Positions 2,477 through 27,890 of a stretch of 50,264 nt of DNA are shown piece after piece. A program made the translations under genes and the position numbers. This DNA is from Candidatus Ornithoclostridium faecigallinarum (lineage in GTDB: Bacteria; Bacillota; Clostridia; Christensenellales; UBA3700), in contig DVOI01000021.1 of assembly GCA_018713665.1 (NCBI GenBank), positions 1 to 50,264 of the forward strand, given 5' to 3'. How positions within the stretch are numbered: position 1 is the stretch's first letter; every line of letters starts with the position of its first letter. Under the pieces are notes generated by a model. That model was not told where the DNA came from. It saw only the letters and a list, made by a program, of their open reading frames with translations, and ran no database searches.

Positions 2477-2491
2477 AGTTTCACCGCAGTC

Positions 2492-2520
2492 ATTTTACTA
2501 TAAGCAAAGGGCAATGTCAA
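2492..2520 (-). promoter_or_regulatory. Putative promoter of the MFS gene (TTGACA-17-TAAAAT)
   Basis: The minus strand reads TTGACA (2520-2515), a 17-nt spacer, then TAAAAT (2497-2492), 16 nt upstream of ATG 2476. Confidence 0.45.
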
Positions 2521-2528
2521 CGATCCGA

Positions 2529-2559
2529 GCCCTCTCGCGCGAGACGAGCGCGAGAGGGC
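2529..2559. other. Perfect 12-bp GC-rich hairpin of unknown role
   Basis: GCCCTCTCGCGC (2529-2540), loop gagacga, GCGCGAGAGGGC (2548-2559). No clean U-tract on either strand. It abuts the first tandem repeat unit. Confidence 0.5.
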
Positions 2560-2740
2560 TTGTCAAGTTTTGTGAACCGCTTTTTTGAAAATTTTGCGCG
2601 ATCCCACAAAAAGCGGAAAACGGGTATTCGGCTTGTCAAGTTTGGGTGTCACTTTTTTATACCTTTTGCCAAAAAGCCGACGATCACCGCTTGCGCCTGT
2701 CAAGTTTTTGAGTACGAATTTTTTGAAAAATTTTGCAAAA
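2559..2740. repeat. Three degenerate tandem copies (period 73 and 64 bp) of a module CTTGTCAAGTTT-N8-11-TTTTTTGAAAATTTTGC
   Basis: Units start at 2559 (cttgtcaagttttgtgaaccgcttttttgaaaattttgc), 2632 (cttgtcaagtttgggtgtcacttttttataccttttgcc) and 2696 (cctgtcaagtttttgagtacgaattttttgaaaaattttgc). The core CTTGTCAAG is a 9-nt palindrome. Confidence 0.6.
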
Positions 2741-2961
2741 CGTCGTAACAATACCCTGTTTTTGAGCGGATCTTGAAAAATCATTTTTATCATTATACGA
2801 TATATTTCGCCTCAGGCGATGTTACATTCACTTTACATCACCGCCGAAAAATGTCAAATATACGTTACATCGCCGATGTTTTTGAAAACTGTTGATTATC
2901 TCTCATGCGTCACTCTCCTCTCTCCCGAAAAATGCGCGCCGTGAAAATTTTTCGCCTTTTC

Positions 2962-2990
2962 TTGCGGCAGTGCGTGAGGTGTGATATAAT
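2962..2990 (+). promoter_or_regulatory. Putative promoter of the TIR gene (TTGCGG-17-TATAAT with extended -10 TG)
   Basis: TTGCGG 2962-2967, 17-nt spacer, tgaTATAAT with TATAAT at 2985-2990. This leaves a ~55-nt leader before ATG 3052. Confidence 0.45.
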
Positions 2991-3051
2991 TATACTGCTC
3001 GGAGCGCGCCCTCAAACGCCGCGCCCGAGACTTCGACCGAACGAGGGAATT

Positions 3052-4056
3052 ATGGAAAAGTTGGTCTTCGTCAGCCACGCGCGCGAGGCGGACGGCGAAA
3101 AAGCGGATCGCATCGTAGAATATCTCGAAAGCCACGGCATCGGCTGTTTCATAGCGCCGCGCGATATCACAAAAGGCGCATCGTACGCCCCCAAACTCGT
3201 CGCCGGCATAGACGCGGCTACGGTCGTGCTGCTCATCGGCACGCCGGCGATTGTGGGCAGAGAACATATACTCAACGAGATCGAGATCGCCGTCAACAAG
3301 CACAAGACCATCGTCCAATTCGTCATCGAGGACTACACCCCGTCCGACGACCTCGTCTACTACATCAGCCGCAAACAAAAACTCATCGCGCCGACAGGCG
3401 ATTATGAGGCGTTTTTGCCCACGCTCGAACACGAGCTGCGCGTCACGCTCGGTCTGCCCGAAAAGTCCGCCGAAAAAGGGGCGAAAGACTTCTCGGACGA
3501 GACGAAATACAAGGTGTTTCAATACCTTTCCGACCGCGGCATCATGATCAACCCCTCCGACCAGCACCGCAACGTCAGCTTCCGAAGCGACACGTTCGTC
3601 ACGATGTTCGGACAAATCTACGACAGCGTCGCCAGGCTCACCGACCCGGCAAGCGCGGAAGGCATCTTCTATGACTGCGGTTGCCAAAGCGGCTACAACT
3701 TCGGCCGCAGACTGCAAAGTTCGTGGGACGAAAAGAACGAGTACCTCCTCGCCTCTCCGCAGGAAAAGCTCGCGAAGTGGTGCGAGTTCGACTCCAACGT
3801 CGGCTGGGGCAAGTTCGAGTGCAACATCTCCATCGACCCCGAAAACGACTCCCTCGAAGGCAAATTGACCGTCAGCGAGTGCTTCCTCGTCGACAAGTCG
3901 CCCGTCCATCGTCCTGTTTGCGCGTTCATACGCGGCTATTGCGAGGCGGTAATCGGCGTGCTCCTCGGCGACGTCGAGGTCAAGCTGACCTGCGCGTCCT
4001 GCCCCCTCGTCAAAAAGTTCAAAAACGTGTGCGAGTTTGACATCTCGCTCAAATAG
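3052..4056 (+). CDS. TIR-domain protein fused to a V4R-like small-molecule-binding domain (334 aa)
   Basis: The ORF track gives 2905..4056. I start it at ATG 3052, which follows a GAGGGA Shine-Dalgarno (3043-3048). The N-terminus MEKLVFVSHAREADGEKADRIVEYLESHGIGCFIAPRDI...ATVVLLIGTPAIVGREHILNEIEIAV has a TIR_2-like layout. The C-terminus has GWGKFE, VCAFIRGYCEAVIGVLLG and CASC..CEFDI, which are V4R-like landmarks. Confidence 0.8.
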   Translation: MEKLVFVSHAREADGEKADRIVEYLESHGIGCFIAPRDITKGASYAPKLVAGIDAATVVLLIGTPAIVGREHILNEIEIAVNKHKTIVQFVIEDYTPSDDLVYYISRKQKLIAPTGDYEAFLPTLEHELRVTLGLPEKSAEKGAKDFSDETKYKVFQYLSDRGIMINPSDQHRNVSFRSDTFVTMFGQIYDSVARLTDPASAEGIFYDCGCQSGYNFGRRLQSSWDEKNEYLLASPQEKLAKWCEFDSNVGWGKFECNISIDPENDSLEGKLTVSECFLVDKSPVHRPVCAFIRGYCEAVIGVLLGDVEVKLTCASCPLVKKFKNVCEFDISLK

Positions 4057-4086
4057 CGCAGCGGCTTGCGTTGCCGCCGTGCGGCG

Positions 4087-4112
4087 TTTGAATCGTTGTC
4101 TTGCGATTCAAA
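4087..4112 (+). terminator. Hairpin downstream of the TIR gene (9-bp stem), without a U-tract
   Basis: TTTGAATCG (4087-4095), loop ttgtcttg, CGATTCAAA (4104-4112). A flanking GCGGCG/CGCCGC pair could extend the stem. Confidence 0.3.
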
Positions 4113-4178
4113 CTCAATGCGCCGCAAAAGCCGACGTTACACTGCCGCTCGCTCAAACATCAATCTCTCCGACCGCGG

Positions 4179-4207
4179 TTGCATTTCGCCGCCGACTGTG
4201 CTATAAT
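4179..4207 (+). promoter_or_regulatory. Putative promoter of the MDR-like gene (TTGCAT-17-TATAAT, extended -10)
   Basis: TTGCAT 4179-4184, 17-nt spacer ending in tgc, TATAAT 4202-4207. AAAGGAGA Shine-Dalgarno and ATG 4228 follow. Confidence 0.5.
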
Positions 4208-4227: not shown

Positions 4228-5196
4228 ATGAAATCCTGGATCGTTTCCAAACCCGGAGAATTGTCGTCGGCTGTCGCCGAAGACGCGGCGCTGCTTCAGG
4301 ACGCGGCGCGCGTTCGCTTGGCGCGTGCGGCAATCTCTGCGTCCGACATCGCCGCATTCAAAGGCAAGACGCGCAAACTGCCCGTCATCCCCTGCCGCAT
4401 CGCGATGGGGCTCGTCGGCGAAAGCAACGACATCACCCTCAAAATCGGACAACGCGTGATGCTGTCCCCCTACCGCCATACCGAAAAGGGAACTTTGGTC
4501 AAGGGCGTCGACTGCGACGGCTATCTGTCCGATTTCGTCACCTGTCCGCGCTCGGAGATCTATGTGATGCCCGAGGGAATATCGGACGAGTCAATCGTCT
4601 TTGTCGAAGATATCGCGCGAGCGGTCAACGCTCTCGAAAAATTGGACATCTCCAAGACGCAATACATATTGCTGAGCGGATGCACGGTGCTCAACTTCAT
4701 CATCGCTCAACTCGCCATCTACTATCAGGCAATCCCCATCATTGTCGACAATCGGCGCGAAATGCTCGATCTCGCCGAGGATATGGGCGTCTACTTCACC
4801 GCCAACCCAGACGAAGAAGATCTGTTCGACAAGGTCAAGGAATTGACGTCCGGCGCAATGTGCGATTGTCTCGCCGCAGACGCGGACTTCTTCCCCGAAG
4901 CCGGCAAATTGCTGTCCTGCCTCAAACCGGGAGGCAAAGCGGCGTTTTGCGGAGAAGGCAGTCTGTCCACGACGGCAAGCGCGCCGATTGCGGAAATCGT
5001 CGCAAAGCGCCTCGAAGTGTTCGGCATTCAATCGGGCGACGGCGAACTCGAGACTGCAATCAACATGCTCGCGACCGAGATTGTCAAGGTCGACAAATTG
5101 GTAGGCAAACTCGAAGAGTTTTCGGACGCGCCGGCGGTCTTCAAACGCCTCTCCGAACAACCCGTGCCGGGCATCAAGACGGTCATAAGATTCTGA
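4228..5196 (+). CDS. Medium-chain dehydrogenase/reductase (zinc-ADH) fold protein with degenerate zinc and dinucleotide motifs
   Basis: 322-aa ORF with a strong Shine-Dalgarno site. The layout is GroES-like N-domain plus Rossmann domain. The motifs are degenerate: AISASD replaces GICGSD, CRI replaces GHE, and SGCTVLN replaces GxGxxG. Confidence 0.8.
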   Translation: MKSWIVSKPGELSSAVAEDAALLQDAARVRLARAAISASDIAAFKGKTRKLPVIPCRIAMGLVGESNDITLKIGQRVMLSPYRHTEKGTLVKGVDCDGYLSDFVTCPRSEIYVMPEGISDESIVFVEDIARAVNALEKLDISKTQYILLSGCTVLNFIIAQLAIYYQAIPIIVDNRREMLDLAEDMGVYFTANPDEEDLFDKVKELTSGAMCDCLAADADFFPEAGKLLSCLKPGGKAAFCGEGSLSTTASAPIAEIVAKRLEVFGIQSGDGELETAINMLATEIVKVDKLVGKLEEFSDAPAVFKRLSEQPVPGIKTVIRF

Positions 5197-7279: not shown

Positions 7280-9904
7280 TCAGTCTGCGCCGTACTTGAC
7301 GATGCCGAACGCCTTGACGATCTCCATCACTATCACGGACACGAACGAGAACGCGACCGCGATCAGATAGCCCCACCACTCGACATAGACCATGCCGAAC
7401 GCGCCGTTGACGCCGGGAACGAACACGACGAACGCGATCAGCGCGACCGAGATCAGCGCGACGATGTTCATGCGCCTGTTGCTGAACGGCCCTATCTTGA
7501 ACAGCGAGCGGTCGGAACGCATGTTGTACGCGTGGACGATCTGCGACAGCGACAGCGTGATGAACGCCAGCGTGCTTCCGCCCTCGATGCCGTGCCCCAT
7601 GACGTTGTCGCCGATGTAGAAGGACAGCAACACCAATATCGAGAACAGCGCGCCCTGAAGCCCTATGACCAATCCGAATTTGTGCGCGAACAGCCCTTCG
7701 TTTTTGGGACGGGGCGGATGTTTCATCACGTCTTTTTCGACCGCTTCCATGCCCAGCGCAATCGCCGGAAGCGAGTCGGTGACAAGGTTAATCCAAAGCA
7801 ATTGTATCGAGATGAACGGCGATTCGCGCCAAATCAGCATCGCGATGAACACCGAAAGTATCTCGCTGACGTTGGTGCTGAGCAAGAAGCCGACGACCTT
7901 CTTGATGTTGGCGAAGATGCCTCTGCCCTCTTTGACCGCGTCGACGATGGTCGCAAAGTTGTCGTCCGTCAATGTGACGTCCGCCGCGCCCTTTGCGACG
8001 TCGGTGCCGGTGATGCCCATCGCGCAGCCGATATCGGCGGCTTTGAGTGCGGGCGCATCGTTGACGCCGTCGCCGGTCATGGAGACGACCTTGCCCTTTT
8101 TCTGCCATGCCTTGACGATGCGGATCTTGTTCTCGGGCGAGACGCGCGCATATACGGAGATGTGCTCTATGTTGGCGTCGAGCTCTTCGTCGCTCATCTC
8201 GTCCAATTGCGGACCGGTGAGCGCCATGTCGCCCTCGCGGAAGATGTCGAGCTGTTTGGCGATTGCCTGCGCGGTGACGACGTGGTCGCCGGTAATCATC
8301 ACGGGCTTTATGCCAGCCTCGCGGCAGACGGCGACCGCGGCGGCAGCCTCGGGCCGCGGCGGATCGATCATGCCGACCAGGCCGATGAAAGTCAATTTAT
8401 CTTCGAGCGTTTCGGGCGTCGCCTCTTCGGGCAGCTTGTCGAGCACGCGATAGCCGACCGCCAATACGCGGAGCGCCTCGCGGCTCATCTCGTCGTTGGC
8501 GACCCTCGCCTTTTCGAGATCGCCCGCGACGCACAGCTTCGCCATCACGTCGAACGCGCCCTTTACGATCGCGACGTATTTGCCGTCCATCTCGTGAACG
8601 GTCGTCATCAATTTGCGGTCGGAATCGAACGGCACTTCGGCGACGCGAGGATAGGCGGTGTTGAGCTTGACCTTGTCGTCGCCCGCCTTTGTCGCGGCGA
8701 GCACTATCGCCGTCTCGGTCGGGTCGCCGATGTGGGTCTCTTTGCCGCCCTCTATGACGACGGAACCGTCACAGCAGAGCGCGCCGTAATCGAGCAATTT
8801 GCGCACGTCGTCGCCCAAATTTGCGACGTCGAGATCGGCGACAGCGCCGCCGTCGACGTACGTCTTGACGAGCGTCATCCTGTTTTGAGTCAATGTGCCC
8901 GTCTTGTCCGAACATATCACGGACGCGCTGCCCAGCGTCTCGACCGCCGGCAGCCGCTTGATGATCGCGTTCTTCTTGACCATGCGCGTGACGCCGATGG
9001 ACAGTACGATCGTGATGATCGCGGGAAGTCCCTCGGGGATCGCCGAGACCGCGAGCGAGACCGCTACCATAAAAATCTCGAGCGGCGGAATGCTGTCGAT
9101 CAAGCCGACGACAAACACGATCGCGCATGCGGCAAGCGCGACTATCCCAAGCCACTTGCCCAGTTTGGCGAGTTTTTGTTGCAGAGGCGTCGCCTCTTCC
9201 TTTTCGCCTGCGAGCAGGTCGGCGATCTTGCCCATCTCCGTCTTCATGCCCGTGCCGGTGACGACCGCGGTCGCTCTGCCGTAGGTGATCGAGCACCCCG
9301 AGAAGACCATGTTGCGGCGGTCGCCTATCGGCGCCTTGTCCTCGACGACGGCGTCCGAGTCCTTTTCGGACGGCACCGACTCGCCCGTCAGCGCGGATTC
9401 TTCCGATTTGAGATTGGCGCTGTCGATGAGCCTTGCGTCCGCCGGGACAAAGTCGCCCGCCTCGAGCTTGATGATGTCGCCCGGGACGACCTCGGTCGAC
9501 GAGATGACCGCCTCCTTGCCGTCGCGGATGACCTTTGCGTGCGGCGCGGACATGTTTTTGAGCGCTTCGAGCGCCTTTTCCGCCTTGTTTTCCTGCAACA
9601 CGCCTATCACCGCGTTCATGATGACGATGAAGAAGATGAGCGCAGGCTCGATGAACTCCATCGGGTCTTCGCCGAAGCACGCGACGACGAGCGAAATGAT
9701 CGCCGCGACGATCAAGATGATGATCATCACGTCTTTGAACTGTTCGAGAAAGCGGACGAAAAGACTCTTCTTTTTCTTTTCCGCCAGCTTGTTCTCGCCC
9801 ACTTCGGCAAGCCGCTTTTGCGCCTCCGCCGCGCTCAGCCCCTTTGACGGGTCGACGCCGAGAGAATCGAGCAGCTCCTGCTTGTCTCTGCTGTGGTTTT
9901 CCAT
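7280..9904 (-). CDS. Cation-translocating P-type ATPase (Ca2+-type, P2A-like)
   Basis: 874 aa with the ICSDKTGTLTQN phosphorylation motif, the TGDGVNDAPALK hinge and about 10 TM segments. Confidence 0.95.
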   Translation of the reverse strand: MENHSRDKQELLDSLGVDPSKGLSAAEAQKRLAEVGENKLAEKKKKSLFVRFLEQFKDVMIIILIVAAIISLVVACFGEDPMEFIEPALIFFIVIMNAVIGVLQENKAEKALEALKNMSAPHAKVIRDGKEAVISSTEVVPGDIIKLEAGDFVPADARLIDSANLKSEESALTGESVPSEKDSDAVVEDKAPIGDRRNMVFSGCSITYGRATAVVTGTGMKTEMGKIADLLAGEKEEATPLQQKLAKLGKWLGIVALAACAIVFVVGLIDSIPPLEIFMVAVSLAVSAIPEGLPAIITIVLSIGVTRMVKKNAIIKRLPAVETLGSASVICSDKTGTLTQNRMTLVKTYVDGGAVADLDVANLGDDVRKLLDYGALCCDGSVVIEGGKETHIGDPTETAIVLAATKAGDDKVKLNTAYPRVAEVPFDSDRKLMTTVHEMDGKYVAIVKGAFDVMAKLCVAGDLEKARVANDEMSREALRVLAVGYRVLDKLPEEATPETLEDKLTFIGLVGMIDPPRPEAAAAVAVCREAGIKPVMITGDHVVTAQAIAKQLDIFREGDMALTGPQLDEMSDEELDANIEHISVYARVSPENKIRIVKAWQKKGKVVSMTGDGVNDAPALKAADIGCAMGITGTDVAKGAADVTLTDDNFATIVDAVKEGRGIFANIKKVVGFLLSTNVSEILSVFIAMLIWRESPFISIQLLWINLVTDSLPAIALGMEAVEKDVMKHPPRPKNEGLFAHKFGLVIGLQGALFSILVLLSFYIGDNVMGHGIEGGSTLAFITLSLSQIVHAYNMRSDRSLFKIGPFSNRRMNIVALISVALIAFVVFVPGVNGAFGMVYVEWWGYLIAVAFSFVSVIVMEIVKAFGIVKYGAD

Positions 9905-9947
9905 TGCTGTCTCCTTGCGGCGTCATGGGCGCCGCGCCCTTATCATC

Positions 9948-11507
9948 TCAATATCTGTCCGCCGCAAGCAGCGAATACAGCTCGTTGTACACGGGCAGGT
10001 TGCAGCGATAGATCTTCTTGTAGACCCTGTTGTAGAACTGCAAATACCGCTCGTGATTTGCGGCGTCGGGCTGATAGACGGTCGTGACGCGCACCATCGC
10101 GTCTGACGCCTCCTCTATGCTGCCGTACACGCCGAGCGTCGCGAACGCGACGACAGCGCAGCCCAATCCGCTCGTCTCGTAAGTCTGCACCTTGTAGACG
10201 GGCATGCCGATGATGTCCGCCATGATCTTGCAGACGATCTCGCTCTGAGAGCCGCCGCCCGAGACGGCGACGCGCGTCACCGGATTGCCGGTGCGGCGCA
10301 TCAAATTCTCGAGCCCTTCGAACAGCGCGTAGCCCAAGCCCTCTATTATCGCGCGATAGATATGCGCGCGCGTGTGCACGTCATTGAAACCTATCATCAC
10401 GCCCTTCGCCTGCGGGGTCTTGAGCCCCGGTCCCCAATAGGGCTGGACGAGCAAGCCGTCGCTGCCGACCGGCACTTTGTTCAACGTGTCGTCAAGCAAT
10501 TTTTCTGCCGAAATGCCGAGACGCTCCGCCTCGTGCTGTTCGTAGAACGCGAATTGATCCCTGAACCAAGAGACCATCCAAAAGCCGCGGAAGATCTGAA
10601 TCTCGGGATTGTATTTGCCGTCGACGACCGACGTATATGCCGGCATGAACGTCTCCGGCTCGACATATTTGTCCGTCGTCACCTCGACGGAAGCGGCGGT
10701 GCCCAGGGAGATGCTGGCGACATCCCTGCCTATCGCGCCGTTGCCGACAGTCTCGCAGACCTTGTCCGCGCCCGTCGCAATCACCGGTATGCCCTCGGCA
10801 ATGCCTGTCGCCTCGCTCGCTTCGCGCGAGATCGCGCCGATCTTCTCTCCCGGGCGCACGAGCTCGCACATCTTGTCGATCGGACAGCCGAAGATACAAT
10901 AGTTGAGCGAGCGCTTGGTCATCCACTTGCGCTTTTTGTAGTCGTAGGGGAAGCGCGCCGCCTGCCCCGCGGTCGAGTCGGCAAGCCTTCCGGTCAGCTT
11001 GAAGTGGTACCACGCGGTGGGCATGACGATCTTCGCCGTCCTTTGCCACACCTCGGGCTGATTGACCCTGACCCAATTGGTGTAGCTGGTGCGGCGCTGC
11101 ACGCGCACCACCTCGCCCATGCCGACTGCCGAATAGATGAATCTCTTCCAAAGCGGCAGCGGATCGGGGCACTCGACCTCTCGCTTGTCCATCCAAAGAA
11201 TCGCGTCGCGCGTCGGCGCGCCGTCCTTGTCGAGGAAGAAAAGCGTGTTGCGAATGCTCGTCACGGTGACCGCGGCGACGTCTTTCCACCTGTCGCCCAA
11301 CCTTTCTTTCAATTGTTTTGAGACGGCGCAAATCCCCGTCCAAAGTTCATTGATGTCCTTTTCCGCCCTATTGTCGTTCTTGGAGATGTACGGCGGCTCT
11401 TCTCTTCTCACCTTGTCGACGAGCTCGCCGCGGCAATCGAACGCCAGGGCGCGCGTACTCTGCGTGCCCACGTCGAAGACCAAGACGAGCCTATTGTCGT
11501 CGTTCAT
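9948..11507 (-). CDS. FGGY-family carbohydrate kinase
   Basis: 519 aa. N-terminus LVLVFDVGTQSTRALAFD and a C-terminal VSGGGSQSEI-type FGGY signature. Confidence 0.9.
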   Translation of the reverse strand: MNDDNRLVLVFDVGTQSTRALAFDCRGELVDKVRREEPPYISKNDNRAEKDINELWTGICAVSKQLKERLGDRWKDVAAVTVTSIRNTLFFLDKDGAPTRDAILWMDKREVECPDPLPLWKRFIYSAVGMGEVVRVQRRTSYTNWVRVNQPEVWQRTAKIVMPTAWYHFKLTGRLADSTAGQAARFPYDYKKRKWMTKRSLNYCIFGCPIDKMCELVRPGEKIGAISREASEATGIAEGIPVIATGADKVCETVGNGAIGRDVASISLGTAASVEVTTDKYVEPETFMPAYTSVVDGKYNPEIQIFRGFWMVSWFRDQFAFYEQHEAERLGISAEKLLDDTLNKVPVGSDGLLVQPYWGPGLKTPQAKGVMIGFNDVHTRAHIYRAIIEGLGYALFEGLENLMRRTGNPVTRVAVSGGGSQSEIVCKIMADIIGMPVYKVQTYETSGLGCAVVAFATLGVYGSIEEASDAMVRVTTVYQPDAANHERYLQFYNRVYKKIYRCNLPVYNELYSLLAADRY

Positions 11508-27728: not shown

Positions 27729-27790
27729 AACGCACCTCCCGAATAAAAGATACGGCAGAGAGCCGACGAAAAACAATGTCGCTTGTATTC

Positions 27791-27882
27791 GCAGCGGACG
27801 CAACACAACACCGCAAGCATACGCTTTTCGTTTGAAGGCGACATCCCATCCCTCAACACTTAACGCGTCGTGTTTACTCTGC
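27791..27882 (-). promoter_or_regulatory. THF (tetrahydrofolate) riboswitch
   Basis: The minus strand reads GCAGAGUAAACACGACGCGUUAAGUGUUGAGGGAUGGGAUGUCGCCUUCAAACGAAAAGCGUAUGCUUGCGGUGUUGUGUUGCGUCCGCUGC. This matches the conserved THF-I blocks AGAGUA, CGCGUUAAGUGU, GAUGGGAUGUCG, AACGAA, GCGGUG and GCAUCCGCU-like, and P1 closes as GCAG/CUGC. Confidence 0.85.
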
Positions 27883-27890
27883 CGTCTGTA

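Follow-up and report, generated by a model that had tools for sequence, protein, structure and literature searches.

Introduction

TIR enzymes hold a central place in the immunity and cell-death signalling of bacteria, plants, and animals, and how the enzyme is activated is the key question for each new architecture. When a bacterial TIR domain carries a glutamate in the helix that follows its third strand, it is typically an NAD+ glycohydrolase that is switched on by self-association. In the described sensor-coupled systems, SARM1 (ARM-SAM-TIR), SPARTA, TIR-STING, TIR-SAVED, and the Pycsar effectors, the TIR fold, this glutamate, and a regulatory domain are combined in the same polypeptide, and the sensor is an ARM, APAZ, STING, SAVED, or cyclic-nucleotide-binding domain. 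Here, we describe a gene with the same layout, in which the predicted sensor is a module of the V4R/Bet3 type. It was found at positions 3052..4056 of the forward strand in a 50,264-nucleotide (nt) stretch of DNA from Candidatus Ornithoclostridium faecigallinarum (contig DVOI01000021.1 of assembly GCA_018713665.1; the whole stretch is called the window below). The translation, the homologues, and the ratio of nonsynonymous to synonymous substitution rates (dN/dS) define a coding sequence of 334 amino acids (aa) with a TIR domain, a conserved linker, and a V4R/Bet3-like module, and the protein is referred to as TIR-V4R.

Bet3 and V4R are known homologues, in which helices lie on a four-strand sheet and two GxxxG doublets recur in the helices that pack against each other (Podar et al., 2008; PMC2253512). 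The window protein resembles the V4R sensors of XylR, DmpR, and PoxR, the archaeal stand-alone V4R proteins, and TRAPP Bet3 in this fold, in both GxxxG-type doublets, and in a cysteine cluster in the C-terminal part. The outputs differ, being a sigma-54 AAA+ transcription activator in the V4R activators and a predicted TIR enzyme in the window protein. The window family also differs in that it scores below the Pfam threshold and has its own invariant motif, RGIMINP...RNVSFRxDT, ahead of the module. Very little experimental characterization of V4R/Bet3-fold modules exists.

An asparaginase-like partner is usual in the TIR-V4R family and is present in none of SARM1, SPARTA, TIR-STING, TIR-SAVED, and Pycsar. 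Neither a TIR-V4R fusion nor a cassette that joins a V4R module to an asparaginase-like gene was found described in PADLOC 2.0, NCBIfam, or the searchable literature, which agrees with an earlier sequence-only reading of the locus that knew of no TIR wired to a V4R sensor. Likewise, the searchable literature held no relevant paper joining asparaginase to TIR, HEPN, or anti-phage function, or TIR to Bet3. The explanation that we favour, with modest confidence, is that the protein is a gated TIR NADase with a V4R/Bet3 module, that its family is normally encoded as two genes, and that the window's clade has no adjacent partner. What would be new is the sensor, and likewise the partner, of a regulated TIR enzyme.

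Results

TIR domain and putative catalytic glutamate

The TIR domain was located at 3064..3450 (+), where the Pfam match covered residues 5-98 and the modelled fold extended to about residue 133. The match to TIR_2 (PF13676) scored 50.2 bits against a cutoff of 28 (E 4.5e-13). In the AlphaFold2 (AF2) model, the domain had the flavodoxin-like fold of five parallel strands: strands at residues 5-8, 32-34, 58-63, 86-91, and 109-112 alternated with helices, with a predicted local distance difference test score (pLDDT) of about 90. When the domain was compared with structures in the PDB by Foldseek, SARM1, the TIR-APAZ protein of SPARTA, and AbTir were matched (E 1e-5 to 3e-4), and superposition on the SARM1 TIR domain yielded a TM-score of 0.71-0.76 (normalised to target). 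A sequence search of the PDB with the full protein gave a marginal match to TIR-STING alone.

The putative catalytic glutamate, E76, is encoded by the codon GAG at 3277..3279 (+). E76 was placed in the helix after the third strand (58-63) of the model and was aligned with the glutamate of the W-x-x-x-E helix motif of TIR-STING (6wt6), with H72 at the tryptophan position. Conservation was read from an alignment of 32 sequences with 41-97% identity to the window protein, in which the pair N75-E76 was invariant and E26, C32, A35, R37, D38, and G42 were invariant or nearly so. The sequence-only reading had called a TIR_2-type domain with E76 at the catalytic position, and both calls were borne out by the profile match, the modelled fold, and the alignment. 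The TIR domain is probably an NAD-cleaving enzyme.

Linker and V4R/Bet3-like module

The most conserved segment of the family was found between the two domains. The linker motif F-x-Y-x(3)-RGIMINPxDxxRNVSFRxDT (residues 156-181) is encoded at 3517..3594 (+), and F156, R162, G163, M165, N167, D170, R173, N174, S176, F177, R178, D180, and T181 were all invariant. The motif was also retained in relatives with other N-terminal domains. A block that is the most conserved of the protein and the least confidently modelled has the pattern expected of a segment that becomes ordered only upon binding, and the linker motif is predicted to be a contact site for a partner or a ligand.

The C-terminal module (residues ~179-334, encoded at 3586..4053, +) was recognized by the AF2 model, Foldseek, the GxxxG doublets, and the cysteine cluster. 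The model, which was run with the homologue alignment, had a mean pLDDT of 81 and values of about 80-90 in the C-terminal domain, and was low only at residues 142-176. Helices were predicted at residues 179-196, 199-227, 236-250, and 290-304, and strands at 254-262, 267-275, 310-316, and 326-333, in agreement with the superfamily fold in which helices pack on a twisted antiparallel sheet of four strands. The Foldseek matches of the module were TRAPP Bet3 (6aq3, E 3e-6), the phenol-sensing V4R domain of PoxR (5frw, E 1.6e-5), and mouse Bet3 (1wc8, E 1e-4). The first GxxxG doublet, G210/G214, was invariant, and the second, G295-x3-G299, was present in 96% of the partnered homologues and carries Ala299 in the window's clade. 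The landmarks that the sequence-only reading had pointed out in this half proved to be real and conserved: in GWG(K)F, residues G251, W252, G253, and F255 were invariant and K254 was present in at least 90% of sequences, and W243, F246-D247-S248, V250, E276, and G295-Y296-C297 were invariant or nearly so. V4R sensor domains of the PoxR/DmpR type have a metal site, and the five invariant cysteines of the window protein, C290, C297, C314, C317 (as C317-P318), and C327, may form one as well.

The protein is soluble, cytoplasmic, and composed of two domains. No signal-like segment was detected at the N-terminus, and the sole hydrophobic stretch (residues 50-68) belongs to the TIR core, which was modelled with confidence, in line with the earlier statement that a signal peptide and a transmembrane segment are absent. 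A membrane or secreted protein was rejected on this ground.

Homologues and selection

A search of 5.8 billion proteins recovered 35 relatives of the window protein, most of them 326-353 aa long and almost all without a name. One was annotated as a TIR protein of Candidatus Borkfalkia avistercoris, and one carried 'predicted hydrocarbon binding protein', the COG1719/V4R label, as its JGI annotation. TIR_2 was present in the precomputed annotation of all full-length homologues. The reading frame was intact in five orthologues with 68-97% identity, and dN/dS was 0.07-0.25 for the window gene against four orthologues. TIR-V4R is a real gene under purifying selection.

The asparaginase-like partner

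The gene directly downstream of four distant homologues (41-48% identity) encoded a protein with a Pfam Asparaginase match, sometimes with a 4-nt overlap, and the contexts of these four loci were otherwise unrelated. When GTDB representatives, one genome for each species, were scanned, 77 loci were obtained, nearly all from metagenome-assembled genomes (MAGs) of gut or rumen Clostridia, including Christensenellaceae, Lachnospiraceae, Oscillospiraceae, Acutalibacteraceae, and others. An asparaginase-like homologue was present at 73 of the 77 loci, downstream on the same strand in 72 and just upstream in the remaining one (L036). The gap between the TIR-V4R gene and the partner had a median of 12 nt and was 30 nt or less in 66 of the 72, and no third conserved gene was found across the cassette loci. 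The canonical unit of the family is a two-gene operon, and the 'one-protein switch' of the sequence-only reading does not describe the family.

The partner proteins scored about 103-111 bits against Pfam Asparaginase and 75-105 bits against the NCBIfam model of type I asparaginase (cutoff 260), and models of archaeal GatD scored about as well (the asparaginase and GatD models together have cutoffs of 260-324). The motifs TGGTIG, LSEN, and HGTDT were invariant or nearly invariant, with the TGGT nucleophile motif and the GTD core of HGTDT invariant. TGGT and GTD are common to the partner, type I L-asparaginase (AnsA), and archaeal GatD; the partner differs from both in scores below their cutoffs, in the lack of conservation at the canonical catalytic lysine position, and in being always coupled to a V4R-module gene. 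No PADLOC 2.0 model matched the partner proteins. On this comparison, the partner is a divergent asparaginase-like protein and not an ordinary AnsA.

At locus L027, a gene for a pyridoxal phosphate (PLP)-dependent enzyme (Pfam PALP; 9012-10331, +) directly followed the TIR-V4R homologue in the partner's place. In our reading, its product is D-serine dehydratase-like.

A wider family with exchanged N-terminal domains

Ten genome loci matched the C-terminal half only, and most of them still had an asparaginase-like gene downstream. When a profile of the C-terminal module was searched against 1.84 billion cluster representatives, 600 clusters were recovered at E <=1e-3 and 312 at <=1e-10, the family size of about 600 clusters being counted at 50% identity. 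Several N-terminal parts were observed. One was a helical domain of ~170 aa with a conserved LRNxxxH motif and a weak HEPN_RiboL-PSP match, which we tentatively regard as HEPN-like. A Pontiella MAG carried a different TIR domain that matched the PADLOC TIR-TM model with 262 bits, and an Abditibacteriaceae MAG (L085) carried a ParA/MinD-like NTPase. Further relatives had short N-termini without any domain. Among 95 long hits to distant relatives, 47 had ParA/MinD-type domains and others had TIR_2, a CAP12/Pycsar-type TIR, DUF4062, or Metallophos; a V4R match was present in 8 of the 95 and a TRAPP match in 7 (E <=1e-3). The Metallophos version at L089 (226-1206) was followed by an asparaginase-like gene and preceded by a phage-type integrase.

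The constant unit of the family is the linker motif, the V4R-like module, and the asparaginase-like protein, and the N-terminal output domain is exchangeable. The window protein carries the motifs of the constant module, RGIMINP...RNVSFRxDT, WCEFDSxVGWG, and GYC.

The window's clade without an adjacent partner

Four loci of the species scan had no partner, namely L010, L011 (Candidatus Borkfalkia avistercoris), L027, and L076, the last on a fragmentary contig. With 97% protein identity, L010 represents the window's own species and lies on an uncultured Christensenellaceae chromosome. The orthologues at L087 and L088, as those at L010 and L011, had no asparaginase-like gene directly downstream. 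Since the partner is also found with relatives whose N-terminal domain is a different one, pairing is the ancestral state and the adjacent gene was lost in the window's clade; the Christensenellaceae/Borkfalkia clade of the window is a derived form. This clade kept nearly all of the family-conserved residues, and about a dozen positions showed clade-specific, mostly conservative changes. A profile search for a copy of the partner elsewhere in the genome yielded thousands of asparaginase-family proteins, whose taxon labels did not separate the window genome. For the window genome, two cases are considered: the protein works by itself on a ligand, or its partner is encoded at another site.

The surroundings of the gene were stable within the clade. 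An MFS (major facilitator superfamily) transporter, TIR-V4R, an alcohol dehydrogenase (ADH)-like gene, MurC, SpoVG, and a cation ATPase were shared in synteny by the orthologues with 88% and 68% identity, and at orthologous loci of 68-97% identity the TIR-V4R gene still had the ADH-like gene as its neighbour. In Borkfalkia, the orthologue (69% identity) was found in a different housekeeping locus, flanked by a DUF1846 gene and PrmA. Homologues that are always in fixed housekeeping synteny, with no association with defence islands, had been named in the sequence-only reading as a refutation of its hypothesis.

Genomic context of the cassettes

The genes flanking 58 cassettes belonged to 128 Pfam families, mostly housekeeping (MnmA seven times, GatB and Spo0A three times each). 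No enrichment of restriction-modification, CRISPR, Abi, or integrase genes was found among the immediate neighbours of these cassettes, so that the association with defence islands, which the sequence-only reading had set as a test, was mostly negative. MnmA preceded the cassette in seven Christensenellaceae species. Cassettes occupied scattered chromosomal positions, and no relative was found in IMG/VR viral contigs or, by tblastn, in PLSDB plasmids.

Two kinds of mobile surroundings were seen. The cassette at L007/L008 (4637-5968) lay beside a TraG/type IV secretion system (T4SS) coupling protein and a DUF3990-HTH gene, apparently on a conjugative element, and the cassette at L089 with its upstream integrase also appears to be on a mobile element. 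A different TIR_2 protein of 397 aa was encoded directly upstream of the pair of TIR-V4R and asparaginase-like genes at L005 (6667-7860) and L006 (2401-3594, +), and an extra adjacent TIR_2 gene was present at three of the 58 cassettes.

Genes of tRNA-dependent amidation recurred near the cassette. The order aspS-gatA-gatB-cassette was observed at L017, L036, and L059, and the same genes were nearby in L040 and L044. At L076, aspS follows the module gene. In the Abditibacteriaceae locus L085, which belongs to a different phylum, the ParA-type version and two asparaginase genes lay between bona fide gatA and gatB, and a ParA-type relative at L091 follows an amidase. These adjacency counts were not corrected for phylogeny. 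The recurrence of gatA, gatB, and aspS suggests a link to tRNA-dependent amidation or amide-nitrogen metabolism, and the exchange of effector-type domains, the scattered locations, and the two mobile-element cases are hints of a role in conflict.

Comparison with described TIR defence systems

The window protein shares with Thoeris ThsB a stand-alone bacterial TIR_2-type domain, and weakly matched PADLOC ThsB1 with 27.5 bits and NCBIfam ThcB4 with 26.4 bits (cutoff 220). It differs from Thoeris in that no ThsA (SIR2/SLOG or Macro) is adjacent at the window locus and in that the V4R-like module is not a feature of ThsB. Thoeris membership was rejected on the scores far below cutoff and on the neighbours, an MFS transporter and an ADH-like gene. 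Membership of CBASS or Pycsar was rejected as well, with no cyclic-nucleotide sensor domain beyond a 17-bit SAVED_TIR match in the TIR region and no cyclase nearby. SPARTA was likewise rejected, as only the TIR part was superposed (145-153 aligned columns) and no Argonaute was present in the neighbourhood. Retron-TIR and SAVED-TIR were rejected because the PADLOC and NCBIfam matches were weak, below threshold, and confined to the TIR region.

Gene start and flanking sequence

The 334-aa sequence quoted in the sequence-only reading was the translation of the open reading frame (ORF) 3052-4056 (+). All 31 full-length homologues began at the MEK/MKK position in the alignment (MEKLVF... in the window protein), which places the start at 3052, and a longer in-frame ORF from 2905 was rejected on the same evidence as a start-codon artefact. 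A Shine-Dalgarno-like GAGGG was read from the sequence at 3043..3047 (+), 4 nt ahead of the ATG. The GC content of the gene equals the window average. In this window of 58% GC, long ORFs run antisense to real genes, and the one opposite TIR-V4R (2896-3909, -, 337 aa) was rejected as a shadow ORF of a GC-rich gene that clusters across 48 loci only as a shadow.

The promoter-like site that had been described for the gene was present at 2962..2990 (+), read as TTGCGG, 17 nt, and TGaTATAAT (an extended -10). It was not listed by the consensus scan because its -35 element fits only 3 of 6 bases. After the stop codon, an 11-bp stem-loop was found (core 4086..4113, +) within a larger structure at 4056-4131; the RNA fold of 4054-4135 had an energy of -36.5 kcal/mol (z = -2.98), so that the hairpin noted earlier is a stable structure, but one without a U tract. 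The downstream ADH-like gene (4228-5196; Pfam ADH_N and ADH_zinc_N) starts 171 nt from the TIR-V4R gene and has a promoter-like site of its own, TTGCAT-17 nt-TGcTATAAT, near consensus, at 4179..4207. Because of this site, the TIR-V4R gene looks monocistronic in the window, as had been proposed.

The intergenic region upstream of the gene (2477-3051, 575 bp) was confirmed to be rich in repeats, with three copies of GCTTGTCAAGTTT against 0.06 expected. Within it, a segment of ~500 bp (2528-3033, 44% GC) was present in the same-species locus L010, and only ~97 bp were found at that place in the 88%-identical relative L088. The segment opens with a perfect 13-bp inverted repeat (2528-2540 / 2548-2560) and contains the three GCTTGTCAAGTTT copies at a spacing of 64-73 bp, each followed by a T-rich 28-mer. 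The promoter-like site at 2962-2990 lies inside this segment, which L088 lacks. The segment may be a small non-coding element that was inserted, or a series of sites at which regulators bind.

The Rfam scan gave no match in or near the TIR-V4R locus. Elsewhere in the window, a tetrahydrofolate (THF) riboswitch aptamer was detected at 27790-27883 (-; RF01831, 78.2 bits against a gathering score of 36).

Discussion

A probable conditionally activated TIR enzyme

The TIR-V4R protein is most likely a conditionally activated NADase. In the mechanism that we propose, the V4R-like module and the linker would keep the TIR domain inactive until the protein changes its assembly in response to a small molecule that it binds or to the state of its asparaginase-like partner. 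The TIR domains would then associate and hydrolyse or transform NAD+, and the outcome would be either a lowered NAD+ level with growth arrest or the production of a signal derived from ADP-ribose.

Several findings weigh against this explanation. Both the NADase activity and its gating are predicted from homology alone, and some bacterial TIR domains are non-enzymatic adaptors. The window protein scored 15.3 bits against Pfam V4R (PF02830), below the cutoff of 31 (E 0.021, residues 273-307), and its relatives peaked at 20.8 bits for V4R and 20.8 bits for TRAPP (PF04051), with cutoffs at 31 and 27. Searched as a profile, the C-terminal module gave no meaningful match among PDB sequences. The linker was modelled at low confidence, with pLDDT <50 over residues 150-176. 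The position of the canonical catalytic lysine (K154 of the Thermococcus enzyme) was not conserved in the partner, and no partner was found in the 50-kb window by tblastn of four asparaginase-like partners. The assignment of a V4R/Bet3 fold to the C-terminal half is a model-based one, drawn from the Foldseek fold match and the GxxxG signature and not from the Pfam score; the V4R call of the sequence-only reading stood on these two and on the label of one homologue, and fell short in the profile score. Taken as a whole, that reading was right in its domain calls and reasonable in its NADase hypothesis, and its 'one-protein defence switch' was only partly supported.

Defence, metabolism, and other readings

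What the gated enzyme would serve can be read in two ways. The first, which we consider possible and hold tentatively, is that the cassette is a conflict system that acts by abortive infection against phages or mobile elements, with a swappable N-terminal effector, and that the window gene is a derived solo effector-sensor. Consistent with this reading, effector-type domains (TIR_2, CAP12/Pycsar-type TIR, DUF4062, Metallophos, and the HEPN-like LRNxxxH domain) were exchanged on a constant sensor module, the Pontiella homologue matched a PADLOC TIR-TM model, and the cassette occurred at many chromosomal positions, one copy by a T4SS coupling protein, one by a phage-type integrase, and three with a second TIR_2 gene adjacent. 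However, no PADLOC model matched the partner or the full protein, the neighbours of the 58 cassettes were overwhelmingly housekeeping genes with no enrichment of defence or integrase genes, and IMG/VR and PLSDB contained no relatives. The synteny was stable at the level of clades, as with MnmA in the seven Christensenellaceae species and the window locus at 68% identity, and the GC content of the gene did not depart from that of the window.

The second way, which we consider only slightly less likely than the first, is a physiological switch tied to asparagine metabolism or tRNA-dependent amidation. Here, the module would respond to an amino acid, to an amide-nitrogen metabolite, or to how the asparaginase-like enzyme is faring, and the TIR domain would adjust NAD+ or growth under nutrient stress. 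This would fit a constant partner of the amidohydrolase family that scores equally as GatD and as type I asparaginase and keeps TGGTIG, LSEN, and HGTDT. It would also fit the aspS-gatA-gatB genes that precede the cassette at three loci and lie near it at two more, the placement of the L085 cassette, which comes from another phylum and has another N-terminal domain, between gatA and gatB, the amidase ahead of the L091 relative, the PLP-dependent enzyme in the partner's place at L027, and contexts that are mostly housekeeping and stable within clades. On the other hand, the link to gatCAB was seen at only ~7-8 of ~80 loci, which are phylogenetically non-independent, routine metabolic regulation does not usually work through TIR or HEPN-like outputs, and the window copy has neither the partner nor gat genes nearby.

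It is improbable that the TIR domain is a non-catalytic interaction scaffold without NAD+ turnover, as in adaptor TIRs and the host-targeting bacterial Tcp proteins. TIR domains in general mediate homotypic assembly, and against the PADLOC and NCBIfam models of specific enzymatic defence TIR families the scores stayed far below threshold, but the glutamate at the catalytic position was invariant across homologues of 41-97% identity, the best structural matches were NAD-cleaving TIRs, and neither a signal peptide nor a secretion context that would suit a host-directed role was present. That the window copy is a decaying cassette remnant without a function of its own, as the missing adjacent partner of its clade might indicate, is very improbable, and a pseudogene was rejected on the dN/dS values and the retention of almost all family-conserved residues, to which the intact frame in five orthologues and the promoter-like and ribosome-binding sites can be added.

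Significance of the two-gene family

Beyond the gated TIR NADase that we favour for the window protein, we offer a broader proposal, with considerable doubt, for the family. The V4R-like module and the asparaginase-like protein, the latter of an amidohydrolase fold, may constitute a large undescribed two-gene class of ~600 clusters that jointly controls interchangeable toxic or signalling outputs, such as a TIR NADase, a HEPN-like RNase, a metallophosphoesterase, and a ParA-like NTPase. The class might be a new immune system or a surveillance system for asparagine, glutamine, and tRNA amidation, and the window gene a simplified version independent of the partner.

If the pair is a functional unit, it would represent either a sensing principle that is new to bacterial conflict systems or, in abundant gut Clostridia, a new connection of NAD+ control with the metabolism of amide nitrogen or tRNA amidation. 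It would also offer a first way to learn what is sensed by the V4R/Bet3 domains of prokaryotes. The partner-less window copy is a convenient minimal version of the system, and, if the two-gene class is true, the window gene would show a sensor-effector protein working alone.

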